DNA of 9,513 nt from positions 1 to 9,513 of the IMG/VR virus record IMGVR_UViG_2703718777_000005. One strand, written 5' to 3'. Within the stretch, counting starts at the first letter, position 1. The number at the start of each line of letters is the position of its first letter. Below the pieces are notes generated by a model. It saw only the letters and a program-made list of their open reading frames with translations. It had not been told where the DNA came from and did not search any database. This DNA is from a virus. Taxonomy: Duplodnaviria; Heunggongvirae; Uroviricota; Caudoviricetes. Made by a program: the position numbers and the translations under genes. Shown here one piece after another: positions 698 through 9,459 of this stretch.

Positions 698-870
698 ACG
701 AATTTTGATGATTTATTAACTCTACGAAGTATGATTCTGATATATAAGGAAATTTATTTTTGAAAATGTGGCTGATGAAGGTTATGCGGCAGGGATCATA
801 ACTGCATGGTTTAGCGAGTTACATCAATAAATACAATTGGTTATGTTTTTTAGGTGGGCGAACGTGAGGC

Positions 871-896
871 AAAGAAAACCCGGCGCTGAGGCCGGG
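871..896 (-). terminator. Intrinsic terminator ending the cI-cargo operon (tIMM-like)
   Basis: Minus-strand hairpin CCCGGC-CUCAGC-GCCGGG (plus 879-896) followed directly by UUUUCUUU (rc of 871-878). It sits immediately after the last cassette ORF stop. Confidence 0.6.
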
Positions 897-1061
897 CTAG
901 ATTTTAAAGTATTTATCTTTTAGAGATGTAGATGTAAAACTTTTCGCCTTTGAAAATTTTTTGTCATCAGAAGGGCTTATGAACTCATCTTTTTTGTAGG
1001 GAACCGCTAATGCTGCATCACGTCTGCGAGGCAGCTTGCTTACTTCCTCGCGCTTTTTCAT
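897..1061 (-). CDS. Small basic hypothetical protein (54 aa) tightly coupled downstream of the kinase
   Basis: ATG (rc of 1059-1061) begins 2 nt after the kinase TGA stop; AGGA (rc of 1071-1074) lies about 9 nt upstream. Translation: MKKREEVSKLPRRRDAALAVPYKKDEFISPSDDKKFSKAKSFTSTSLKDKYFKI. The stop abuts the terminator hairpin. It is below the ORF-track size cut-off and is not in the supplied track. Confidence 0.3.
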   Translation of the reverse strand: MKKREEVSKLPRRRDAALAVPYKKDEFISPSDDKKFSKAKSFTSTSLKDKYFKI

Positions 1062-1063
1062 GA

Positions 1064-2110
1064 TCAGTTATCCTTTAATAACCTATACAGTTTTGTAGGG
1101 GTACATCCTGAGGATATTGTTAAGTTCGTAGCACGCCTTTTCCGCCCATCATCGTATAAACGAAAACCAGTAGTAGACGAATTTTCTGCGTCAAAAACTA
1201 TAGACAGTATAGCGTCCCCAGACTTTTTTTGCCATTCGCATGTGCCGTTAGTTGGTTTCGTCATCTGTAGACGCCAGTCAAGAACGCCATCACTTATAGC
1301 TGAGAGATCGTTTAGTACATCTAGTACGGATTGATATCTTTCATTTGGATCTACATGAATGCATTTGTTCACTATTGTTATTAATTTTTTATGTATATGG
1401 GGAGGATACTCTTTTAATGGATAGCAGCCATTAATTATCGACTCTCTGAGTTGTTCAATCGTGCTAAATGCAGATCTTTCTCTTTCAAAATTATCATGTC
1501 CAACACACATTCTATATATGGTTAATCCTGCCTGATATATGTCATATGTGAAATTATAATCATTTGTTGATAAAGAAAAATATTCCGGTGGCACATGAAA
1601 ATGATATCCAAACTCAGGCGCAGCTCTCGATTCCTCATTGACTAACTGAGATAATCCAAAGTCAGATAGCATGGCCTCATTTCTGTTTGATATCATAATG
1701 TTATTAGGTTTTATATCAAAATGCATAAGACCTTTTGAGTGTATATGATAAAGTCCACTTAAAAATTGAATGGAATACCGTATTATCTCCCTGCTTGTAA
1801 GATTATTTTTTTTCATTAATTGGTTTAGCGAACCATTATGATAAAATGGCATGGCTATATAGATATTGCTCTCACATTGAGCAGCATACTGAACTTGCAC
1901 AATATTTGGATGTGCATGTTTATAGAGAAGCCTTGCTTCATTAAAGTAGTCGTCGTGGTTAGTGTTTTCTTTTTTTTCTATTTCTTTAATCACCAAGTCA
2001 TGAGCTAGGTGTCTGTCATGAGCCAGATATACTTTTGAAAAACAACCCTGTTCTTCTAGATCACTAATCCATTCGAATTCTACATCAGCTCTTTTGTATG
2101 GAGTTAGCAT
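1064..2110 (-). CDS. Hanks-type (eukaryotic-like) Ser/Thr/Tyr protein kinase with a C-terminal extension of about 90 aa of unknown function
   Basis: 348-aa ORF with the full set of kinase subdomain motifs: Gly-rich loop QGCFSKVY, beta3 lysine in LVIKEI, catalytic loop HFDIKPNN, DFG (LSDFGLS), APE-like PPEY, DIYQAGLT, and a conserved Arg in PNERYQ. GGAGG lies 7 nt upstream of the ATG. It occupies the rex-like position between cI and pL/N. Confidence 0.85.
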   Translation of the reverse strand: MLTPYKRADVEFEWISDLEEQGCFSKVYLAHDRHLAHDLVIKEIEKKENTNHDDYFNEARLLYKHAHPNIVQVQYAAQCESNIYIAMPFYHNGSLNQLMKKNNLTSREIIRYSIQFLSGLYHIHSKGLMHFDIKPNNIMISNRNEAMLSDFGLSQLVNEESRAAPEFGYHFHVPPEYFSLSTNDYNFTYDIYQAGLTIYRMCVGHDNFERERSAFSTIEQLRESIINGCYPLKEYPPHIHKKLITIVNKCIHVDPNERYQSVLDVLNDLSAISDGVLDWRLQMTKPTNGTCEWQKKSGDAILSIVFDAENSSTTGFRLYDDGRKRRATNLTISSGCTPTKLYRLLKDN

Positions 2111-2565
2111 CCCCTTACCTCCGCAGATAGTGCAGCCAAAACAGCTTCATTTGTTTCAGTTGTAAAACCAGAATTATCGATTCCATTTATATTGCGGTGT
2201 GACTTCAATATTTCTTTATACTCGATCTCTGTTAGGTTCAATGATGATTTCATGCCAGATTTTCTAATAGTGTAATATTTTCTTACATCACTGCTTGAAA
2301 ATGCTTCTTGAATAACAGCTTCTATATAAAGGCGGTCAATGCTAAGATTATCAGAGTTTGATTCAGTAACGCGTATGGCAGCTAATTCAACATTATATAA
2401 ATTAAGAATGTCGAGGATGTTATTTCTCACATACTTTAATTTTTCTGGTGTGTCTAAGGTCGAAGGTATTTTAATAACATCAACACATTTGAGTGCAGAC
2501 TCATTAGTGCAATATACAACAAAAGATGTAACTTTGGGCGCCGCTCTAACACCTAGTATTCTCAT
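2104..2565 (-). CDS. Hypothetical protein (153 aa), translationally coupled to the downstream kinase
   Basis: ORF with AGGA about 8 nt upstream of the ATG. Its TAA stop overlaps the kinase start (ATGCTAA overlap on the minus strand). No family recognised. Confidence 0.6.
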   Translation of the reverse strand: MRILGVRAAPKVTSFVVYCTNESALKCVDVIKIPSTLDTPEKLKYVRNNILDILNLYNVELAAIRVTESNSDNLSIDRLYIEAVIQEAFSSSDVRKYYTIRKSGMKSSLNLTEIEYKEILKSHRNINGIDNSGFTTETNEAVLAALSAEVRGC

Positions 2566-2616
2566 TTTTTATATCCTATTTTAGAATCAGGCCGCATCTC
2601 TGCGACCATCCATCAT

Positions 2617-2631
2617 CCAAACGTCTCTTCA
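2617..2631. repeat. 15-bp direct repeat copy B (CCAAACGTCTCTTCA), immediately 3' of the 113-aa ORF
   Basis: Exact 15-mer identical to 2988-3002; it lies 1 nt after the 113-aa ORF stop codon (2633-2635) on the coding strand. Confidence 0.7.
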
Positions 2632-2632
2632 C

Positions 2633-2974
2633 TCATCCGAAGAAGCAGCAATCCGGGTTAGCACGCACAAGCTCAAGCGCATCAGTCAGCGAAAGTTCAG
2701 TACTGTACTGATGCCATTTCATATCCTTCCGCATCCAATAGATTTTCCATCTATCCAGAGAACGTATGTACTTGATTCTTGCTGATGGCAGGATGTTTGT
2801 TTCACCTGGATTGCCCTGCCACACGGGGCGCTGTTCGCCGATATCTATCGTTTGGTCATTGATGCTATAAACAATATCCAGTTCATTGCGGATATGTTCA
2901 GGCGGCCTTATGCTTTCAATGAATTGGTGAACTTCTTTTTTTACTGCTTGATATTCAAGGTCATTGAACGCCAT
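2633..2974 (-). CDS. Hypothetical protein (113 aa), first gene downstream of cI
   Basis: ORF with a strong RBS (AAGGAGG, rc of 2980-2986) just upstream of the ATG at 2974. The gene is bracketed by two copies of a 15-bp direct repeat. No confident family assignment (Trp-rich C-terminal half WKIYWMRKDMKWHQY). Confidence 0.65.
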   Translation of the reverse strand: MAFNDLEYQAVKKEVHQFIESIRPPEHIRNELDIVYSINDQTIDIGEQRPVWQGNPGETNILPSARIKYIRSLDRWKIYWMRKDMKWHQYSTELSLTDALELVRANPDCCFFG

Positions 2975-2987
2975 CTATCCTCCTTAC

Positions 2988-3002
2988 CCAAACGTCTCTT
3001 CA
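2988..3002. repeat. 15-bp direct repeat copy A (CCAAACGTCTCTTCA), immediately 5' of the 113-aa ORF
   Basis: Exact 15-mer identical to 2617-2631; it sits between the cI stop and the 113-aa ORF RBS. Confidence 0.7.
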
Positions 3003-3034
3003 GGCCACTGGTTACCAGCTATGTGACGATGAAG

Positions 3035-3742
3035 TCACGAACTTTTCAGCCACTCCCTTGCCTCGATGTCATCCAGATGGCGAGATTGCTTCAGAATACC
3101 AGCTACATACTCCACCTTTGCTACTTGATGATAAGGCAACGTTATAGGCCTGTGATCCTGGTTAATGCTTGTAAATTGGTATTCTCCATCTCTGTCATAG
3201 CCAAGAACCTTAATCATGTTGTGTCCTTCAACGGTTCTGACAAACACCTCATCACCCGGGAATACTTTGGTGTTAGGCTCAATGAGTACATATTCTCCTG
3301 ATTTTATTCTGGGCCACATGCTGTCTCCTTTCACACGAAGACCAAAGGCATCTGGATCATCGCTATAAATTTTGAGCCACCCATCGCGCTCTTCGGTCAT
3401 CTCGATGGCACCATCAACACCAAGAATTGCCTCACCAACCACGCGCACTAACCCTTTTTTTAATTTGCCAACAAATGAAAGAGTATCTTCATCATTCGCT
3501 CCATTTAACGAAGTGCCGTGCTGAAGCCAAACAACATCAACGTTTAGAAATTTCGCAAGCGCATTCATTTTTTCCTGACGCGGTAAAGACTCAGCATTAA
3601 ACCATTTGCTAACGCCTTTGGACGAAAGAGAAAGGGCACGGGCTATAGCCATTCCCCTACCATGTTCATCAAGACCAGCTTCTTTACAGGCTTGCGCTAG
3701 CCGCTGGGCGAATTCTTTGCGCACTTTTTCATTCTGAACCAT
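3035..3742 (-). CDS. cI: CI-type prophage repressor (N-terminal HTH, C-terminal LexA/S24 autopeptidase domain)
   Basis: 235-aa ORF. The C-terminal domain carries the S24 catalytic motifs (GDSMWP serine; lysine in MIKVL). It is divergent from cro across a 78-bp operator region, and its start codon sits at the edge of that region (leaderless-like, as for lambda cI from pRM). Confidence 0.85.
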   Translation of the reverse strand: MVQNEKVRKEFAQRLAQACKEAGLDEHGRGMAIARALSLSSKGVSKWFNAESLPRQEKMNALAKFLNVDVVWLQHGTSLNGANDEDTLSFVGKLKKGLVRVVGEAILGVDGAIEMTEERDGWLKIYSDDPDAFGLRVKGDSMWPRIKSGEYVLIEPNTKVFPGDEVFVRTVEGHNMIKVLGYDRDGEYQFTSINQDHRPITLPYHQVAKVEYVAGILKQSRHLDDIEAREWLKSS

Positions 3743-3761
3743 GAGTACGATACTAAAGCAC

Positions 3762-3805
3762 TTGCAAAAACTTTCAGTTCAACCATAATACGTACTGAAA
3801 GTACG
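3762..3805 (+). promoter_or_regulatory. Candidate pR promoter with operator-like palindromes (oR)
   Basis: -35 TTGCAA (3762-3767), 16-nt spacer, -10 CATAAT (3784-3789). Perfect 6-3-6 palindrome CGTACTGAAAGTACG (3791-3805) overlaps the predicted start site; related palindrome AACTTTCAGTT (3769-3779) lies in the spacer; a further short palindrome AGTACGATACT (3744-3754) abuts the cI start. Confidence 0.45.
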
Positions 3806-3820
3806 AAAAAGGATATTCCT

Positions 3821-4048
3821 ATGCAAAATCTTGATGAGCCGATTAAAGGTGTCGGCATCCCTGAAGTTGCGAAGGCTTGTGGAGTTAGCGAAAGGGCTGT
3901 CTATAAGTGGCTCAAAAACGGCTTCCTCCCTAAGACTGAGTTTTTTGGGAAAACTAAATACGCATCAAAAATCGAAGAGATTTCTGGTGGCAAATATCAA
4001 GCAAGCGAAATGCTTGAAATAAGCAAAAAGAACCTTCTGGCTGCATAA
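3821..4048 (+). CDS. cro: Cro-like HTH regulator
   Basis: 75-aa ORF divergent from cI, with AGGA 7 nt upstream of the ATG. HTH-like segment IPEVAKACGVSERAVYKWL; the C-terminus resembles Cro-family tails. First gene of the rightward operon. Confidence 0.7.
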   Translation: MQNLDEPIKGVGIPEVAKACGVSERAVYKWLKNGFLPKTEFFGKTKYASKIEEISGGKYQASEMLEISKKNLLAA

Positions 4049-4186: not shown

Positions 4187-4483
4187 ATGGAACAAACAAG
4201 TTACAGCAAACTATCACAGCGAGAAATTGATCGCGCAGAAACAGATTTACTCATCAACCTGTCAACGCTTACCCAGCGCGGTCTGGCAAAGATGATTGGC
4301 TGTCATGAATCGAAGATAAGCAGAACGGACTGGAGGTTTATTGCTTCGGTCCTGTGTGCTTTCGGAATGGCATCAGACATCAGTCCGATTAGCAGGGCTT
4401 TTAAGTATGCGCTTGATGGACTCACCAATAAAAAACGCCCGGCGGCAACCGAGCGTTCTGAACAAATACAAATGGAATTTTAA
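4187..4483 (+). CDS. cII: CII transcriptional activator homolog
   Basis: 98-aa ORF whose C-terminus (TNKKRPAATERSEQIQMEF) matches the lambda CII C-terminus as recalled. The N-terminal and HTH region is divergent but alignable (ESKISR..W versus KSQISRW). Confidence 0.85.
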   Translation: MEQTSYSKLSQREIDRAETDLLINLSTLTQRGLAKMIGCHESKISRTDWRFIASVLCAFGMASDISPISRAFKYALDGLTNKKRPAATERSEQIQMEF

Positions 4484-4505: not shown

Positions 4506-4649
4506 ATGCGAAAAACGCAGGAAAATAAACGCGTTAATCACCGAAAAGATGTGCTACGTGACCAGTTTTATCAGGGGGTTAATCCAGCAATAGCTGTGCC
4601 ACTGAGAGAAATACTTAACAGGTACAAAACTTCGGAGAAGTCAAAATGA
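4506..4649 (+). CDS. Small hypothetical protein (47 aa)
   Basis: Internal ATG of the 4341..4649 track ORF with GAGGT 7 nt upstream. Its stop overlaps the start of the next gene (ATGA). The upstream part of the track ORF overlaps cII out of frame and is rejected. Confidence 0.35.
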   Translation: MRKTQENKRVNHRKDVLRDQFYQGVNPAIAVPLREILNRYKTSEKSK

Positions 4650-5377
4650 GCATGAATCTTATGGCTAAGGCCATGAATATAAAGGTTGGCAACCCACTGA
4701 GAAAACTGGTTCTGATTAAACTTGCCGATAACGCCAATGATAATGGCGAATGCTGGCCTTCATATCAACATGTCGCTGACCAGTGTGAGGTGAGCAGATC
4801 GACAGTAAAAAGTCACATTAGGGCACTGGAAGATATGGGGCTTTTGAAAAGGGAATTCAGAAGAAAAGGAGAGCTTAACCAGTCAAACGTTTTTTATCTG
4901 ACGTTGGATAATGCACAACAAATCCAACCAGAATTAGGTGGGGCAGGAGCTGACCCCAGAACCTATCACTCTTTTGAACCAGTCAATGAACCTAAAAACA
5001 TTAAGTTCGAACGTGTCCGAACGAAGTGCGAAAAATCATCTGACCGTCACGAAGAAACCGACAAGGCATTCGAGGAAATATTCTGGTGTGCAGGCATGCG
5101 GAAAGCCGGGAAGAAAAACGCAGCTTCGGCATTCAGAACACAGTTCAGGGAATGGCGTAAAACTACCGGGGGTACGGCAAGCGAGTTTGCCACGATGCTG
5201 GCAGAAGACATCGCATGCAGGAATGGTAAGCAGTTCGGATTCGACAGGTTGTTACCATCGAGCTACCTGAACGGTCAGCGCTGGAACGACGAGAAGCCAG
5301 AAACCATTCAACCACAAGCCAGACCATCATCCGCAATCACCGTATCGAAAACTGGCTACGTGTTTTTCGACAGGTGA
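4646..5377 (+). CDS. Putative replication initiation / origin-binding protein (N-terminal winged-HTH)
   Basis: 243-aa ORF in the position of lambda O, directly upstream of the primase-helicase. The N-terminal segment (LIKLADNANDNGECWPSYQHVADQCEVSRSTVKSHIRALEDMGLLKR) is HTH-like. The functional call is positional and motif-based only. Confidence 0.55.
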   Translation: MSMNLMAKAMNIKVGNPLRKLVLIKLADNANDNGECWPSYQHVADQCEVSRSTVKSHIRALEDMGLLKREFRRKGELNQSNVFYLTLDNAQQIQPELGGAGADPRTYHSFEPVNEPKNIKFERVRTKCEKSSDRHEETDKAFEEIFWCAGMRKAGKKNAASAFRTQFREWRKTTGGTASEFATMLAEDIACRNGKQFGFDRLLPSSYLNGQRWNDEKPETIQPQARPSSAITVSKTGYVFFDR

Positions 5378-5484
5378 ACCATGAAATCAAAAATCAAATC
5401 GCTACTGGTCGCTGGTTATAACCACGGCTGGTTAAGTATTTCGTTTGTCGATTTCTGGTTTAAAAATCTCAATCTGAGGGAATC

Positions 5485-7365
5485 ATGACGCCAAGTGAAC
5501 TTAGCGACCTGCTTTGGGCGCAGGTTGACAGGGTGGCTCCGCACCTGTTGCCAAACGGCAAGAAAGAGGGGCATGAGTGGGTTGCCGGTAACGTTAACGG
5601 TGACAAGGGAAACAGCCTTAAGGTCAACCTTAGCGGCAAGAAAAAATGGGCTGATTTCGCTGAGGGAGACGGCGGTGACATGCTTGATTTGTGGATGGCA
5701 TGTCGTGGAATTAACCTGCATCAGGCTATGCAGGAAGCGAAAGCATTTCTCGGTATCAAGGATGACGATCACCATTTCGATGCCAGACGTGAGAAGAAAT
5801 TCTCCAGACCTGATCGCAAGAAAATCGCCCGCTACGTTACCAGAACAGAATCCCATCTTGAGTACCTGCAATCGCGTGGCATATCGCCAGAAGTCGTAAA
5901 GCGCTACGAGGTTGTCAGCGGCAAGGTGTGGAATGGAGAACGAGAACTGGATGCTCTGGTGATTCCGTACAAACGCGATGGTGAGTTGTTGCAGGTCAAG
6001 CGAATCAGCACTGAGCGCCCGGACGGGAAGAAAGTCATTATGGCAGAAGGTGATTGCGAACCTTGTCTGTTCGGATGGCAGGCTCTGGACGCTGGCGTGA
6101 GGGCGGTTGTACTTTGCGAAGGCGAAATTGATTGTATGAGCTATGCGCAATACGGCATCTCGGCGTTATCCGTGCCGTTTGGTGGCGGGAAAGGTGCTAA
6201 GCAACAGTGGATTGAGTTTGAGTATCACAACCTCGACAGGTTTGAGGAAATATTCATCTCGATGGACGTTGATGATGTTGGTCGTGAAGCCGCAAGGGAA
6301 ATCGCAAGCCGACTCGGTGAACATCGTTGCCGTCTTGTTACTCTGCCGTACAAAGACATCAACGAATGCCTGATGAACGGTGTTACCGAGGATGAAATCT
6401 GGCAGTACATCGGCACGGCATCCTACTTCGATCCTGAAGAACTCTACAGTGCGCGAGAGTTTTACCAGGACACTATCAACGCTTTCTACGGCAAGCAGCA
6501 GTATCTGTTTAATCCACCGTGGGAATCTCTGGCAGATAAATTCCAGTTCCGTGAGGCAGAGTTGACGCTGGTCAATGGTGTGAACGGTCACGGAAAAACG
6601 GAGGTTGTCGGGCATATGGCACTTGAGGCAATGCGTCAGGGTGTGAAGACGTGCATCGCGTCACTTGAGCTGAAGCCTGGTATTCTCCTTAAGCGCCTTA
6701 CCCGTCAGGCGACGTGCTGCAAGATGCCGCCAGTGCTGGAAATTGACTCTGCATTTAAATTCTATGACGAAAGACTTTGGGTGTTTGGCCTGACCGGAAC
6801 GGCGAAAGCCGACAGGCTGATCGAAATATTCGACTACGCTCGCCGCCGGTACGGCATCCAGTTATTCATCATCGACAGCCTGATGAAATGCGGCATAGGT
6901 GACGATGACTATAACGGGCAGAAGGCGTTTGTTGACTCGATTTGCGACTTCAAAAACAAAACAAACTCCCACGTCATTCTCGTTACTCACTCGCGAAAAG
7001 GAGACAGCGAAGAAAAACCAACCGGGAAAATGGACGTAAAAGGCTCTGGAGCGATAACAGACCTGACAGACAACCTTTTCATCATCTGGCGTAACAAGGC
7101 TCGCGAGAGAGCGTTACAGAGAGTTCAGAGTGGTGAAAAGATGTCAGAGAAGGACGAACAGCTACTGGCATCTCCGGCATCTGTTTTGATGCTTGAAAAA
7201 CAACGTAACGGCGAAGGTTGGGAAGGTGGTGTCCCGTTGTTCCTTGACGAGCAATCGCACCAGTTCCTGCAACTTGAATCAGGATCGCCATATAGCTACA
7301 TCGCCAATATGCCGAAATCGGAATATGACGAGGCGTGGCGACAGGAAAACGTAACGGAGTATTAA
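5485..7365 (+). CDS. Bifunctional DNA primase/helicase (toprim domain plus DnaB/RepA-like RecA-fold helicase)
   Basis: 626-aa ORF. Toprim-like acidic motif VVLCEGEIDCMSYAQ; Walker A NGVNGHGKTEV; Walker B LFIIDSLMK. GAGGG lies 5 nt upstream of the ATG. It occupies the lambda P position. Confidence 0.85.
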   Translation: MTPSELSDLLWAQVDRVAPHLLPNGKKEGHEWVAGNVNGDKGNSLKVNLSGKKKWADFAEGDGGDMLDLWMACRGINLHQAMQEAKAFLGIKDDDHHFDARREKKFSRPDRKKIARYVTRTESHLEYLQSRGISPEVVKRYEVVSGKVWNGERELDALVIPYKRDGELLQVKRISTERPDGKKVIMAEGDCEPCLFGWQALDAGVRAVVLCEGEIDCMSYAQYGISALSVPFGGGKGAKQQWIEFEYHNLDRFEEIFISMDVDDVGREAAREIASRLGEHRCRLVTLPYKDINECLMNGVTEDEIWQYIGTASYFDPEELYSAREFYQDTINAFYGKQQYLFNPPWESLADKFQFREAELTLVNGVNGHGKTEVVGHMALEAMRQGVKTCIASLELKPGILLKRLTRQATCCKMPPVLEIDSAFKFYDERLWVFGLTGTAKADRLIEIFDYARRRYGIQLFIIDSLMKCGIGDDDYNGQKAFVDSICDFKNKTNSHVILVTHSRKGDSEEKPTGKMDVKGSGAITDLTDNLFIIWRNKARERALQRVQSGEKMSEKDEQLLASPASVLMLEKQRNGEGWEGGVPLFLDEQSHQFLQLESGSPYSYIANMPKSEYDEAWRQENVTEY

Positions 7366-7635
7366 ATGAATAAAAAACAATTAGCCATTCTCGAAAAGGC
7401 ATGGGATGCACAAATATCATGCGCTTTGAAAGAACAGGCACTACCAATAATCCAGACCAAATCGAAAATAGCCAGGCAGTTATGCGATGAAGGATTCCTG
7501 AACGAAGTTGAGATTACGCACCAGATGGTAACGTTCAAAGGGTATGAGATAAATCATCATGGTATAGCGGCGTATTGCTCCCATCTTCCTGATGACGTTG
7601 ACATTGATGAAATGGAAAGGGAGATGAAGCAATGA
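7366..7635 (+). CDS. Hypothetical protein (89 aa)
   Basis: ATG immediately follows the primase-helicase TAA (TAAATG); GGAG 7 nt upstream. No family recognised. Confidence 0.5.
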   Translation: MNKKQLAILEKAWDAQISCALKEQALPIIQTKSKIARQLCDEGFLNEVEITHQMVTFKGYEINHHGIAAYCSHLPDDVDIDEMEREMKQ

Positions 7636-7660
7636 CCATCTACATCACTGAGCTAATAAC

Positions 7661-8284: not shown

Positions 8285-8467
8285 ATGAGCGAGCAAATAT
8301 TCAGAGAGATTAAGCCACGGTTTTATCGCAAGGTAAGGGTGGTTTATCAGGACGAAAACAAGACATGTGCATACGCCATTCATAATGGTCGGTGGTCAGT
8401 GTTCGACACCAAAAACTTCGAGAAGAACTTCGAGAGGATTAAGGGTGATGAGGAAACTAACATTTGA
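8285..8467 (+). CDS. Hypothetical protein (60 aa)
   Basis: ATG at 8285 with AAGGAG 5 nt upstream. The track ORF starts at GTG 8279, but the ATG has the better RBS spacing. Its 3' end overlaps the ninB start by 20 nt. Confidence 0.4.
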   Translation: MSEQIFREIKPRFYRKVRVVYQDENKTCAYAIHNGRWSVFDTKNFEKNFERIKGDEETNI

Positions 8468-8864
8468 ACTAAGAAGCCCCATCCATCAGCAGAACGCCAT
8501 TCAAGCTATCCAGCAAATTCTTCCAGACCCAACCAAACCAATCGTAGTAACCATTCAGGAACGCAACCGCAGCATTCGGCAAAATGCACGCCTTCACGCG
8601 ATGCTATCTGAAATAAGTAAGAAGGCTACATATCACGGAAAAGCAAGAAATATTGAGTTTTGGAAGGGGTTATTCGTTTCTGGTTGGCAGATTGCAACCA
8701 ACCAGCACCCTGAGATTATATCAGGGTTAGAAGGTGAGCTAATAAACATCAGAGAGAGTACGGCGACTCTATCTGTAAAAAAAATATCCGAAATAATGGA
8801 CTACATAGAAGCATATTGTGCCATGAACTCAATTCATCTTAGCGAATGGAGGAATTATGATTGA
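8448..8864 (+). CDS. ninB: NinB-family recombination protein with a divergent C-terminal half
   Basis: From the internal ATG at 8448: MRKLTFELRSPIHQQNAIQAIQQILPDPTKPIVVTIQERNRS, near-identical to the lambda NinB N-terminus as recalled. Total length 138 aa versus about 146 in lambda. The ORF ends EWRNYD* instead of the lambda-type EWKARWGDRAA*. Confidence 0.8.
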   Translation: MRKLTFELRSPIHQQNAIQAIQQILPDPTKPIVVTIQERNRSIRQNARLHAMLSEISKKATYHGKARNIEFWKGLFVSGWQIATNQHPEIISGLEGELINIRESTATLSVKKISEIMDYIEAYCAMNSIHLSEWRNYD

Positions 8865-9459
8865 GGTTTGGGTAGATATCGAAGGGATTCCATTTTATCA
8901 GGTTAGCAATAAAGGAAATTTCAGGTCTATTACGAGGGAAGTTACAGTAACATCAACCAGACAGAGGCCATATAAGAAAATAATTAATGGCACTAGTGTA
9001 AAACCATTCAAGTGCAAGTCGACAGGATATCTTCAAATAAAGGTATACGGTAAGAAATACAGCGCCCACAGGATAGTTGCGAAAGCATTCTGTACAGGGT
9101 TCTGTGATGGCTTGGTAGTTAATCACAAAAATGGGCGAAGAGATGACAATAGGGCTGATAACCTTGAATGGGTATCACATTCTGAAAACTCAAAACACGG
9201 ATATAAACAAAATGGAAGAATACCTATATCGCTAGGTAAATTTAGTGGTGACCATCCTGCCAGTAAAGCTGTTATTTCTACTGACATGAAAACTGGGGAG
9301 GAGGTTTATTATGAAGCAGCTATGGATGCTGTCAGAGAAGGATTTGATAGTTCGTCAATTAGTCGTTGCTGTAATGGCGAAAGCTCATATCACAAAGGAA
9401 GATTCTGGCGATTTGCAAATGAAAAAATGAAAGCGCGATGGGGAGATCGGGCTGCATGA
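8857..9459 (+). CDS. HNH homing endonuclease (NUMOD4-like N-terminus plus HNH motif)
   Basis: 200-aa ORF. N-terminus WVDIEGIPFYQVSNKGNFRS (NUMOD4-like); HNH core AHRIVAKAF ... VVNHKNGRRDDNRADNLEWVSHSEN. GGAGG lies 4 nt upstream. The last 9 codons (KARWGDRAA) match the lambda NinB C-terminus. Confidence 0.8.
   Translation: MIEVWVDIEGIPFYQVSNKGNFRSITREVTVTSTRQRPYKKIINGTSVKPFKCKSTGYLQIKVYGKKYSAHRIVAKAFCTGFCDGLVVNHKNGRRDDNRADNLEWVSHSENSKHGYKQNGRIPISLGKFSGDHPASKAVISTDMKTGEEVYYEAAMDAVREGFDSSSISRCCNGESSYHKGRFWRFANEKMKARWGDRAA

Follow-up and report, generated by a model that had tools for sequence, protein, structure and literature searches.

Which of the genes that a prophage carries behind its repressor belong together, and what do they do? 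The question is raised by a 9,513-nucleotide (nt) stretch of the virus record IMGVR_UViG_2703718777_000005 (hereafter the window, to which coordinates refer unless stated otherwise), where three open reading frames (ORFs) of 113, 153 and 348 amino acids (aa) lie on the minus strand between cI and N. A first-pass annotation, made from the letters alone, had placed all three at 1064-2974 and read them as a candidate defence cassette; they are indeed present at these coordinates. The phage is a lambdoid Shiga-toxin (Stx) phage, and the window spans its immunity and early region. We consider it likely that the conserved unit at this locus consists of the 348-aa kinase Stk, the 153-aa protein L0083 and a small basic protein of about 55 aa, and that it is a phage-exclusion cassette in which L0083 regulates Stk. 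The 113-aa protein L0084, of the family DUF3024, is an independent moron that lies outside this cassette.

The kinase locus and its conserved unit

Between positions 850 and 3800 the window is identical at the DNA level to phage 933W (AF125520, 9890-12840; 100% over 2951 nt, the window position being the 933W position minus 9040), and likewise to Stx2 phage I, phi24B and many other Stx phages. Prophages of EDL933 and other E. coli genomes are identical over this stretch as well. The 348-aa kinase (1064-2110, minus strand) matches protein cluster P0076 with 100% identity and 100% coverage. Because both the DNA and the protein match at 100%, the kinase is 933W Stk (AAD25427) itself; the first-pass annotation had been unable to tell from sequence whether it was an orthologue. 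The gene order N, nutL, tM, L0081, stk, L0083, L0084, cI, oR is that of the 933W record, which names L0081, stk, L0083, L0084 and cI and annotates tM, pM/pR, oR1-3 and nutL; the phi24B record agrees with it and has L0083 as 'res'. The predicted placement of the genes in the rex-equivalent slot between cI and N is thus confirmed by gene order and by annotation.

The function of Stk is published. Its original description (Friedman et al. 2011, Mol Microbiol 82:567, pmid 21985444) is used here as relayed by the papers citing it. In their passages on Stk, the kinase is expressed from the 933W prophage, shows little or no activity as long as cells are not infected, and becomes activated by infection with phage HK97, which is excluded (PMC3681748); stk is co-transcribed with cI and the kinase activity aborts HK97 superinfection (PMC3564112); and Stk is listed beside Rex as a recognised prophage abortive-infection (Abi) system (PMC6356687, PMC8008677). 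Since gene, position and co-transcription from pRM are the same as for 933W stk, the documented function in abortive infection of HK97 is therefore the same here. The exclusion system foreseen by the first-pass annotation is thus real and already known, a kinase-based system in the rex slot being established knowledge; its proposal of an undescribed multi-gene variant is superseded, as the locus is the 933W Stk operon with its published kinase.

The genomic evidence shows that stk travels with L0083 (2104-2565, minus strand). IMG/VR loci were fetched separately with L0083, L0084 and Stk as queries, and six proteins were scored against all of them. Down to 48-51% identity, L0083 and Stk invariably lie side by side, with neither their order nor their offset changing. 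Of the 201 fetched loci with at least one of the two genes, 197 have both; there is some redundancy among these loci, since different queries often retrieved the same contig. The four unpaired loci are contig ends or a truncated copy. In the latter (L152, 563-1435) stk lacks its N-terminal part (aa 58-348 are kept, with 96% identity) and no L0083 lies upstream; apparently a decayed copy, it is the sole exception to the pairing away from a contig edge.

The pairing extends far beyond Stx phages. A pattern scan of species-level genomes with the L0083 family alignment gave 67 loci, of which 66 are informative, and a Stk-like kinase lies directly 3' of the L0083 relative in all 66. The 67 loci span Alpha-, Beta- and Gammaproteobacteria, Bacteroidota, Firmicutes (Paenibacillus, Cohnella, Desulfitobacterium), Cyanobacteria, Myxococcota and Acidobacteriota, i.e. 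at least six phyla, and the junctions between the two genes are mostly overlaps (offsets of -4, -8 or -1 nt). This is further supported by six distant kinases (39-58% identity) that were looked up, from Pseudomonas, Acinetobacter, Elizabethkingia, Vibrio, Klebsiella and Proteus. Each has a partner of 145-155 aa upstream, and the partners that were aligned carry the same invariant residues as L0083. In addition, the sequence identities of L0083 and the kinase co-diverge with a Pearson coefficient of 0.93.

The sites occupied by the cassette, prophages and neighbourhoods of restriction-modification (RM) or Abi genes, are typical defence contexts. The Pseudomonas cassette adjoins Abi_2 and PRTase-CE genes together with an integrase, that of Elizabethkingia an LlaJI RM system and ArdA, and that of Vibrio a type I RM system, while in the Klebsiella and Proteus prophages the cassette lies directly behind cI. 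In Acinetobacter prophages (L167 and L168, 4540-6235) the three-gene cassette is found amid tail genes, between the tail-tube genes and the tape-measure gene. It is this placement away from the repressor that argues for movement of the cassette as a unit between moron sites. Among 5426 complete E. coli genomes the kinase cassette occurs in 223-225 (about 4%), and 185 genomes have the full arrangement, defined as at least 80% of window 850-3800.

In the window itself the cassette is predicted to be part of one lysogenic transcription unit, cI-L0084-L0083-stk-L0081, which would start at pRM with cI first and end at tM. A putative pRM (pM) promoter is located at 3750-3777 on the minus strand, transferred from AF125520 and HM208303 across the 100% identical stretch, and it overlaps the operators oR3-oR1 (about 3735-3805, also by annotation transfer). 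The repressor gene follows at 3035-3742 on the minus strand; its product has a helix-turn-helix (HTH) domain and an S24 peptidase domain (Pfam HTH_3 and Peptidase_S24) and is identical to 933W cI. From the start of cI to N there is a sole terminator-like site on the minus strand, at 898-877. It starts at the stop codon of L0081, comprises a stem of 8 bp, 6 of them G-C, and then TTTTCTTT, and coincides with the intrinsic terminator annotated as tM in 933W and as tRM in phi24B. The first-pass annotation was therefore right that no terminator interrupts the genes and that they form a unit with cI, as PMC3564112 also states of stk in its passage on co-transcription. In the transcriptome of phi24B, stk, the RuvC-like gene, DUF3024 and cI fall together, with log2 fold changes of -1.2 to -1.4 (PMC10789677), a joint change that fits one transcript. 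The region is thus an accessory part of the pRM transcript in a 933W-type Stx prophage.

L0083 shares 7 nt (ATGCTAA) with stk and contains a GAGG/AAGGGG ribosome-binding site, and only 2 nt separate the stk stop codon from the ATG of L0081, the 54-aa ORF at 897-1061 on the minus strand. This is the trailing small ORF of the first-pass annotation; it exists, just outside the 1064-2974 interval to which it had been assigned. L0084 lies 60 nt past cI and has its own strong AAGGAGG ribosome-binding site. The G+C content is 0.33-0.36 over L0083-stk compared with about 0.45 over L0084 and cI.

Stk and its two partner proteins

L0083 belongs to phrog_3875, and PHROGs as well as several GenBank records label it a RuvC-like resolvase. 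The model of the protein indicates a RuvC/RNase H-like fold, a link that is structural only. L0083 scores 14.2 bits against Pfam RuvC, below the gathering threshold of 22.2; there is no PADLOC and no meaningful NCBIfam match, and a profile search of the PDB returned chance matches only (E>=0.4), with no detectable sequence similarity to any solved RuvC.

To place the catalytic residues, the acidic tetrad of E. coli RuvC (D7, E66, D138, D141) was mapped onto L0083 by the Pfam alignment (residues 3-65 to profile positions 1-64) and by the order of secondary-structure elements in the model. Position 7 of L0083, where strand 1 ends, corresponds to RuvC D7 by both alignment and topology, and it is an arginine in 125 of 126 full-length family representatives. 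The third acidic position, residue 137, is variable. Of the tetrad only E68 and E140 are kept. Near-invariant among the 126 representatives are R47, E68, R78, E82, E87 and E140. L0083 thus has neither the catalytic tetrad nor the Pfam score of a RuvC resolvase. Because the first catalytic Asp is replaced by Arg and the third acidic position varies, we infer that L0083 is a non-catalytic subunit with a regulatory, sensing or scaffolding role; as RuvC is a dimer, L0083 may be one too. An exhaustive search with a hidden Markov model (HMM) found 442 cluster-50 representatives (clustering at 50% identity) of the family at E<=1e-3 and 253 at 1e-10. Most relatives among the 150 matches listed are stand-alone proteins of about 150-165 aa.

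Stk is a Hanks-type kinase and has the catalytic Lys, an HxDxKxxN loop, DFG and an APE-like motif. Residues 21-260 (nt 1331-2050) match Pfam PF00069 Pkinase with 158.8 bits (cut-off 31.7, E=2e-46). Its nearest relatives of solved structure come from eukaryotes and include the kinases PKR and Nek7 (E about 1e-21); the similarity is confined to the kinase domain, and by sequence that of PKR is the top match in the PDB (E=1.5e-21). In a family alignment of 32 members, down to 39% identity, K42, E58, H130, D132, K134, N137, D150-F-G, P175-E176, D190 and R258 are invariant, as are, in the C-terminal part, W279 and W293. The first-pass annotation had credited the kinase with every catalytic motif, and these motifs (K42, D132, K134, N137, D150-F-G, P175-E176) are invariant across the family. 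The catalytic loop HFDIKPNN (residues 130-137) carries the D-x-K-x-x-N signature of the serine/threonine type; the literature reports phosphotyrosine and a tyrosine kinase, and dual specificity is possible as judged from the loop.

The roughly 90 C-terminal residues, which the first-pass annotation had described as of unknown fold and perhaps a sensor, are modelled as a conserved alpha/beta domain (aa ~262-348, nt 1067-1327) that matches no known fold (predicted local distance difference test score, pLDDT, 86). This domain also sets Stk apart from catalogued kinase systems. The PD-T4-6 HMMs of PADLOC match Stk with a best E of 1e-37 over residues 20-273, and PADLOC mad6 with E=7e-50, in both cases the kinase domain only. 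The NCBIfam MAD6 equivalog scores 122 bits against a cut-off of 460, the Stk1/PASTA model 122 bits against 450, and the PglW equivalog is far under its cut-off. Because the matches are confined to the kinase domain and the scores lie below the cut-offs, Stk is not a member of the MAD6, PD-T4-6, Stk1 or PglW systems. Assignment to PD-T4-6 was considered and rejected: the validated PD-T4-6 is a single gene of 436 aa (62620-63930), whereas Stk has 348 aa, another C-terminal domain and obligate neighbours, and the HMM matches stop at the kinase domain. PADLOC-DB v2.0.0 sees at most the kinase of the cassette, as PD-T4-6 and by way of that domain.

The third gene, L0081, encodes a basic protein (phrog_4063, E=2.5e-39) that is kept after stk in Enterobacterales down to 38-56% identity. 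Sixty of the species-level genomes have a complete kinase and enough downstream sequence, and all 60 carry an ORF of 45-95 aa that starts between -35 and +70 nt from the kinase stop, compared with 25% of shuffles. A 4-nt overlap is the commonest offset. By sequence, the small proteins, 81 of them distinct, fall into eight clusters. By hhalign, the proteobacterial cluster is linked to the Bacteroidota/Firmicutes cluster with E=1.4e-4, and the Enterobacterales cluster with L0081 is not significantly linked to any other. HMMs built with one clade left out recovered the Proteus small ORF against shuffles with p about 0.013, 933W L0081 with p about 0.06 and the Tatumella ORF not significantly. As these tests do not link all clades, we claim conservation of position only for these small ORFs.

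The DUF3024 gene and the remainder of the window

For L0084 and L0083 the first-pass annotation had recognised no family. L0083 is the RuvC-fold protein of phrog_3875 described above, and L0084 (2633-2974, minus strand) is a DUF3024 protein: residues 4-113 of 113 match PF11225 with 106.5 bits (cut-off 24.9, E=1e-30), and the protein matches the PADLOC single-gene candidate PDC-S43 with E=4e-41. Its matches in the PDB are weak (E>=0.07, to an avirulence protein). No Rex family match was found for any of the four proteins in Pfam or PHROGs scans; NCBIfam gave no match for three of the four, and PADLOC matched only the kinase and DUF3024.

DUF3024 and the kinase cassette are separable in both directions. 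In IMG/VR, DUF3024 occurs without the cassette in about 35 loci and the cassette without DUF3024 in about 30, and DUF3024 is absent from 65 of the 66 informative species-level genomes, including every non-enterobacterial one. The gene is bracketed by a perfect 15-nt direct repeat, CCAAACGTCTCTTCA (plus strand), of which 0.03 occurrences are expected by chance. One copy is located in the cI-L0084 spacer (2988-3002) and the other in the L0084-L0083 spacer (2617-2631). Both copies accompany DUF3024 in 30 loci that have no cassette, and in a phage without DUF3024 a single copy is present at the same place upstream of L0083, which suggests that the repeat pair is a cassette boundary or a recombination site. 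DUF3024 follows several unrelated cI repressors, including that of lambda, where it occupies the rexAB slot, and it is present in 227 of the 5426 complete E. coli genomes. L0084 is thus an independent moron and may be a defence candidate of its own; the idea that the three genes upstream of L0081 form one system does not hold, the conserved unit being L0083, stk and the small ORF. An O157:H7 strain is scored by PADLOC as PD-T4-6 plus PDC-S43 in a paper whose passage on the strain does not name the locus; the score agrees with the way in which current tools would annotate the present locus. The slot behind cI was also seen to be a cargo hotspot (L103, 5278-6342; L074, 5226-7065; L110 and L120, around 6001-7650), with second cargoes behind DUF3024 that comprise a 177-aa protein, a ParA/MinD-like ATPase of 351-368 aa, and ORFs of 162 and 206 aa.

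The remaining genes of the window were assigned from the ORF list and family scans. N lies at 25-408 on the minus strand, and on the plus strand follow cro (3821-4048), cII (4187-4483), an HTH_36 replication initiator (4646-5377), a Toprim/DnaB-like primase-helicase (5485-7365), NinB (8367-8864) and an HNH/NUMOD4 endonuclease (8857-9459). Divergence from 933W is limited to the right half, the replication module from about 4500, where the best matches are other Stx2a phages. The whole window matches the Stx2a phages LC645439-41 best, with 98% coverage. The replication module (4646-7365) is unlike O/P of 933W, with the initiator-like protein of 243 aa and the primase-helicase of 626 aa. The 200-aa ORF resembling HNH_3/NUMOD4 homing endonucleases lies directly 3' of ninB in a region of low G+C content (0.375-0.40) and probably entered the nin region as a mobile insertion.

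Rival readings and known systems

How could a cassette of L0083, Stk and a small protein exclude a phage? The three genes are translationally coupled and travel as a block among prophages and defence islands of many phyla. We propose that L0083 could act as a sensor or a scaffold, possibly dimeric, that holds the kinase off before infection. Upon appearance of a phage product or structure it would permit autophosphorylation of Stk, and broad phosphorylation of host and phage proteins would then arrest the infected cell and stop the infection. The trigger in HK97 reportedly maps to an early gene (gp41). The C-terminal domain of Stk is a likely docking or trigger-binding surface in this scheme, and L0081 might serve as a regulator or substrate. 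Whether Stk is in this sense the catalytic subunit of an undescribed three-gene anti-phage system, with its RuvC-fold partner as a PKR-like sensor or dimerising switch, we regard as evenly balanced.

Several points weigh against a joint action of the three proteins. The evidence for it is comparative throughout, being drawn from sequences. Expression of stk alone from a plasmid reportedly suffices for HK97 exclusion; in that case exclusion under over-expression has no strict need of L0083 and L0081. L0081 has no significant sequence homology to the small ORFs of other phyla, position alone being conserved. The near-invariant E68, E82, E87 and E140 may form a remodelled active site and give L0083 a non-canonical nuclease activity. 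Finally, Proteus prophages carry a divergent DUF3024 (37-40% identity) again beside the cassette, so that a loose functional association of DUF3024 with the cassette may exist.

The simplest alternative, that Stk acts alone next to an ordinary Holliday-junction resolvase and an unrelated small ORF, has the literature on its side, as the citing papers credit exclusion solely to Stk in their passages on the system; the resolvase label of PHROGs and GenBank also fits it, and in PADLOC, PD-T4-6 and similar kinase systems are single-gene entries. However, mere neighbours would not be expected to show the strict linkage over at least six phyla, including non-prophage sites, the overlapping ORFs and the co-divergence (r = 0.93) that are found here. 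The Arg at the first catalytic position in 125 of 126 representatives and the Pfam score of 14.2 bits, under the threshold of 22.2, speak against a working resolvase, which moreover would be of no obvious use on the lysogenic transcript that expresses L0083. We therefore consider this reading improbable. Much the same holds for the proposal that L0083 is itself the effector, a remodelled nuclease switched on by Stk phosphorylation that aborts infection by cleaving DNA. Four near-invariant glutamates and the frequency of nucleases among defence effectors can be quoted for it, yet L0083 has an Arg where all active RNase H-like nucleases have their first metal-binding Asp, and the accounts cited above ascribe the published phenotype to the activity of the kinase itself; we give this proposal little credence.

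A toxin-antitoxin-like arrangement would make Stk the toxin and L0083 or L0081 a labile antitoxin that is removed or sequestered on infection, thereby freeing the kinase. Gene order and overlaps are typical of such modules, the cassettes sit in defence islands, and Stk is described by citing papers as little active in uninfected lysogens, where the partners are expressed as well. Against this, scans with Pfam, PADLOC, PHROGs and NCBIfam found no antitoxin-like DNA-binding domain in L0083 or L0081, and a simple inhibitor would not usually be a RuvC fold of 150 aa in which many charged residues are invariant, which leaves the arrangement conceivable but unlikely. The earlier model of a single three-component system made of DUF3024, the 153-aa protein and the kinase accounts for the co-oriented genes in one transcription unit without an internal terminator; the order cI-DUF3024-partner-kinase recurs in the diverged Proteus prophages, and DUF3024 is itself a PADLOC defence candidate. 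It is nevertheless very improbable in view of the absence of DUF3024 from about 30 cassette loci in IMG/VR and 65 of 66 informative genomes, its presence without the cassette and with other cargo behind it in about 35 loci, its own flanking 15-nt repeats and a G+C content unlike that of the cassette.

We thus favour the cassette of L0083, Stk and the small basic protein. What this adds to the published account of Stk is a corrected unit of function, a modest lead rather than a new kind of system. From Stx phages to defence islands of Bacteroidota and Firmicutes, stk was never found without the RuvC-fold partner or a small downstream ORF, the decayed and contig-edge copies apart. No description of the L0083-stk partnership was found in the literature on DUF3024, RuvC-plus-kinase defence and PD-T4-6 or in the PADLOC and NCBIfam libraries, and within these sources the three-gene architecture with its pseudo-nuclease partner appears not to have been described before. 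Should the partners turn out to be required, the paradigm drawn from 933W, in which a phage protein activates a kinase that works on its own, would need revising; rules of the PADLOC type that read these kinases as PD-T4-6 would require a new multi-gene model, and a RuvC fold serving as non-catalytic kinase regulator would be a new use of that fold. In the E. coli strains that bear it, many of them Stx producers such as O157:H7, the cassette may shape which phages can superinfect.

Rex of phage lambda combines a sensor with a membrane ion channel and is not a kinase. The likeness of the present locus to RexAB lies in the slot between cI and the immunity terminator, in expression from pRM and in abortive exclusion of heterologous phages (PMC3564112), while L0081, Stk, L0083 and L0084 have no sequence or domain relationship to it. 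The kinase does not differ in sequence from the 933W Stk of Friedman et al. (2011), being the same gene, although the function described there, as relayed by citing papers, is that of a single gene and does not include L0083 and L0081 as partners. Staphylococcal Stk2 (Depardieu 2016), which is activated by a phage protein (PMC13276650), and PD-T4-6 (Vassallo 2022) are Hanks-type kinases that give abortive infection, as does 933W Stk, but 933W Stk is distinguished by a C-terminal domain of its own and by obligate partners on either side. In contrast to the RuvC resolvase, L0083 has an Arg for the first Asp and a variable third acidic position, and it is always coupled to a kinase; comparable cases are the RuvC-fold pseudo-nucleases Cas12k, TEFM and the YqgF-like domain of Spt6/Tex. 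Two kinases provide further parallels: in PKR, a nucleic-acid sensor is linked to dimerisation of the kinase, and the infected cell is shut down, while Bud32 is a small kinase that works with Kae1, a partner of the RNase H-like (ASKHA) fold. The similarity of both PKR and Bud32-Kae1 to Stk-L0083 is an analogy of function and architecture, the homology shown being that of the generic kinase domain.

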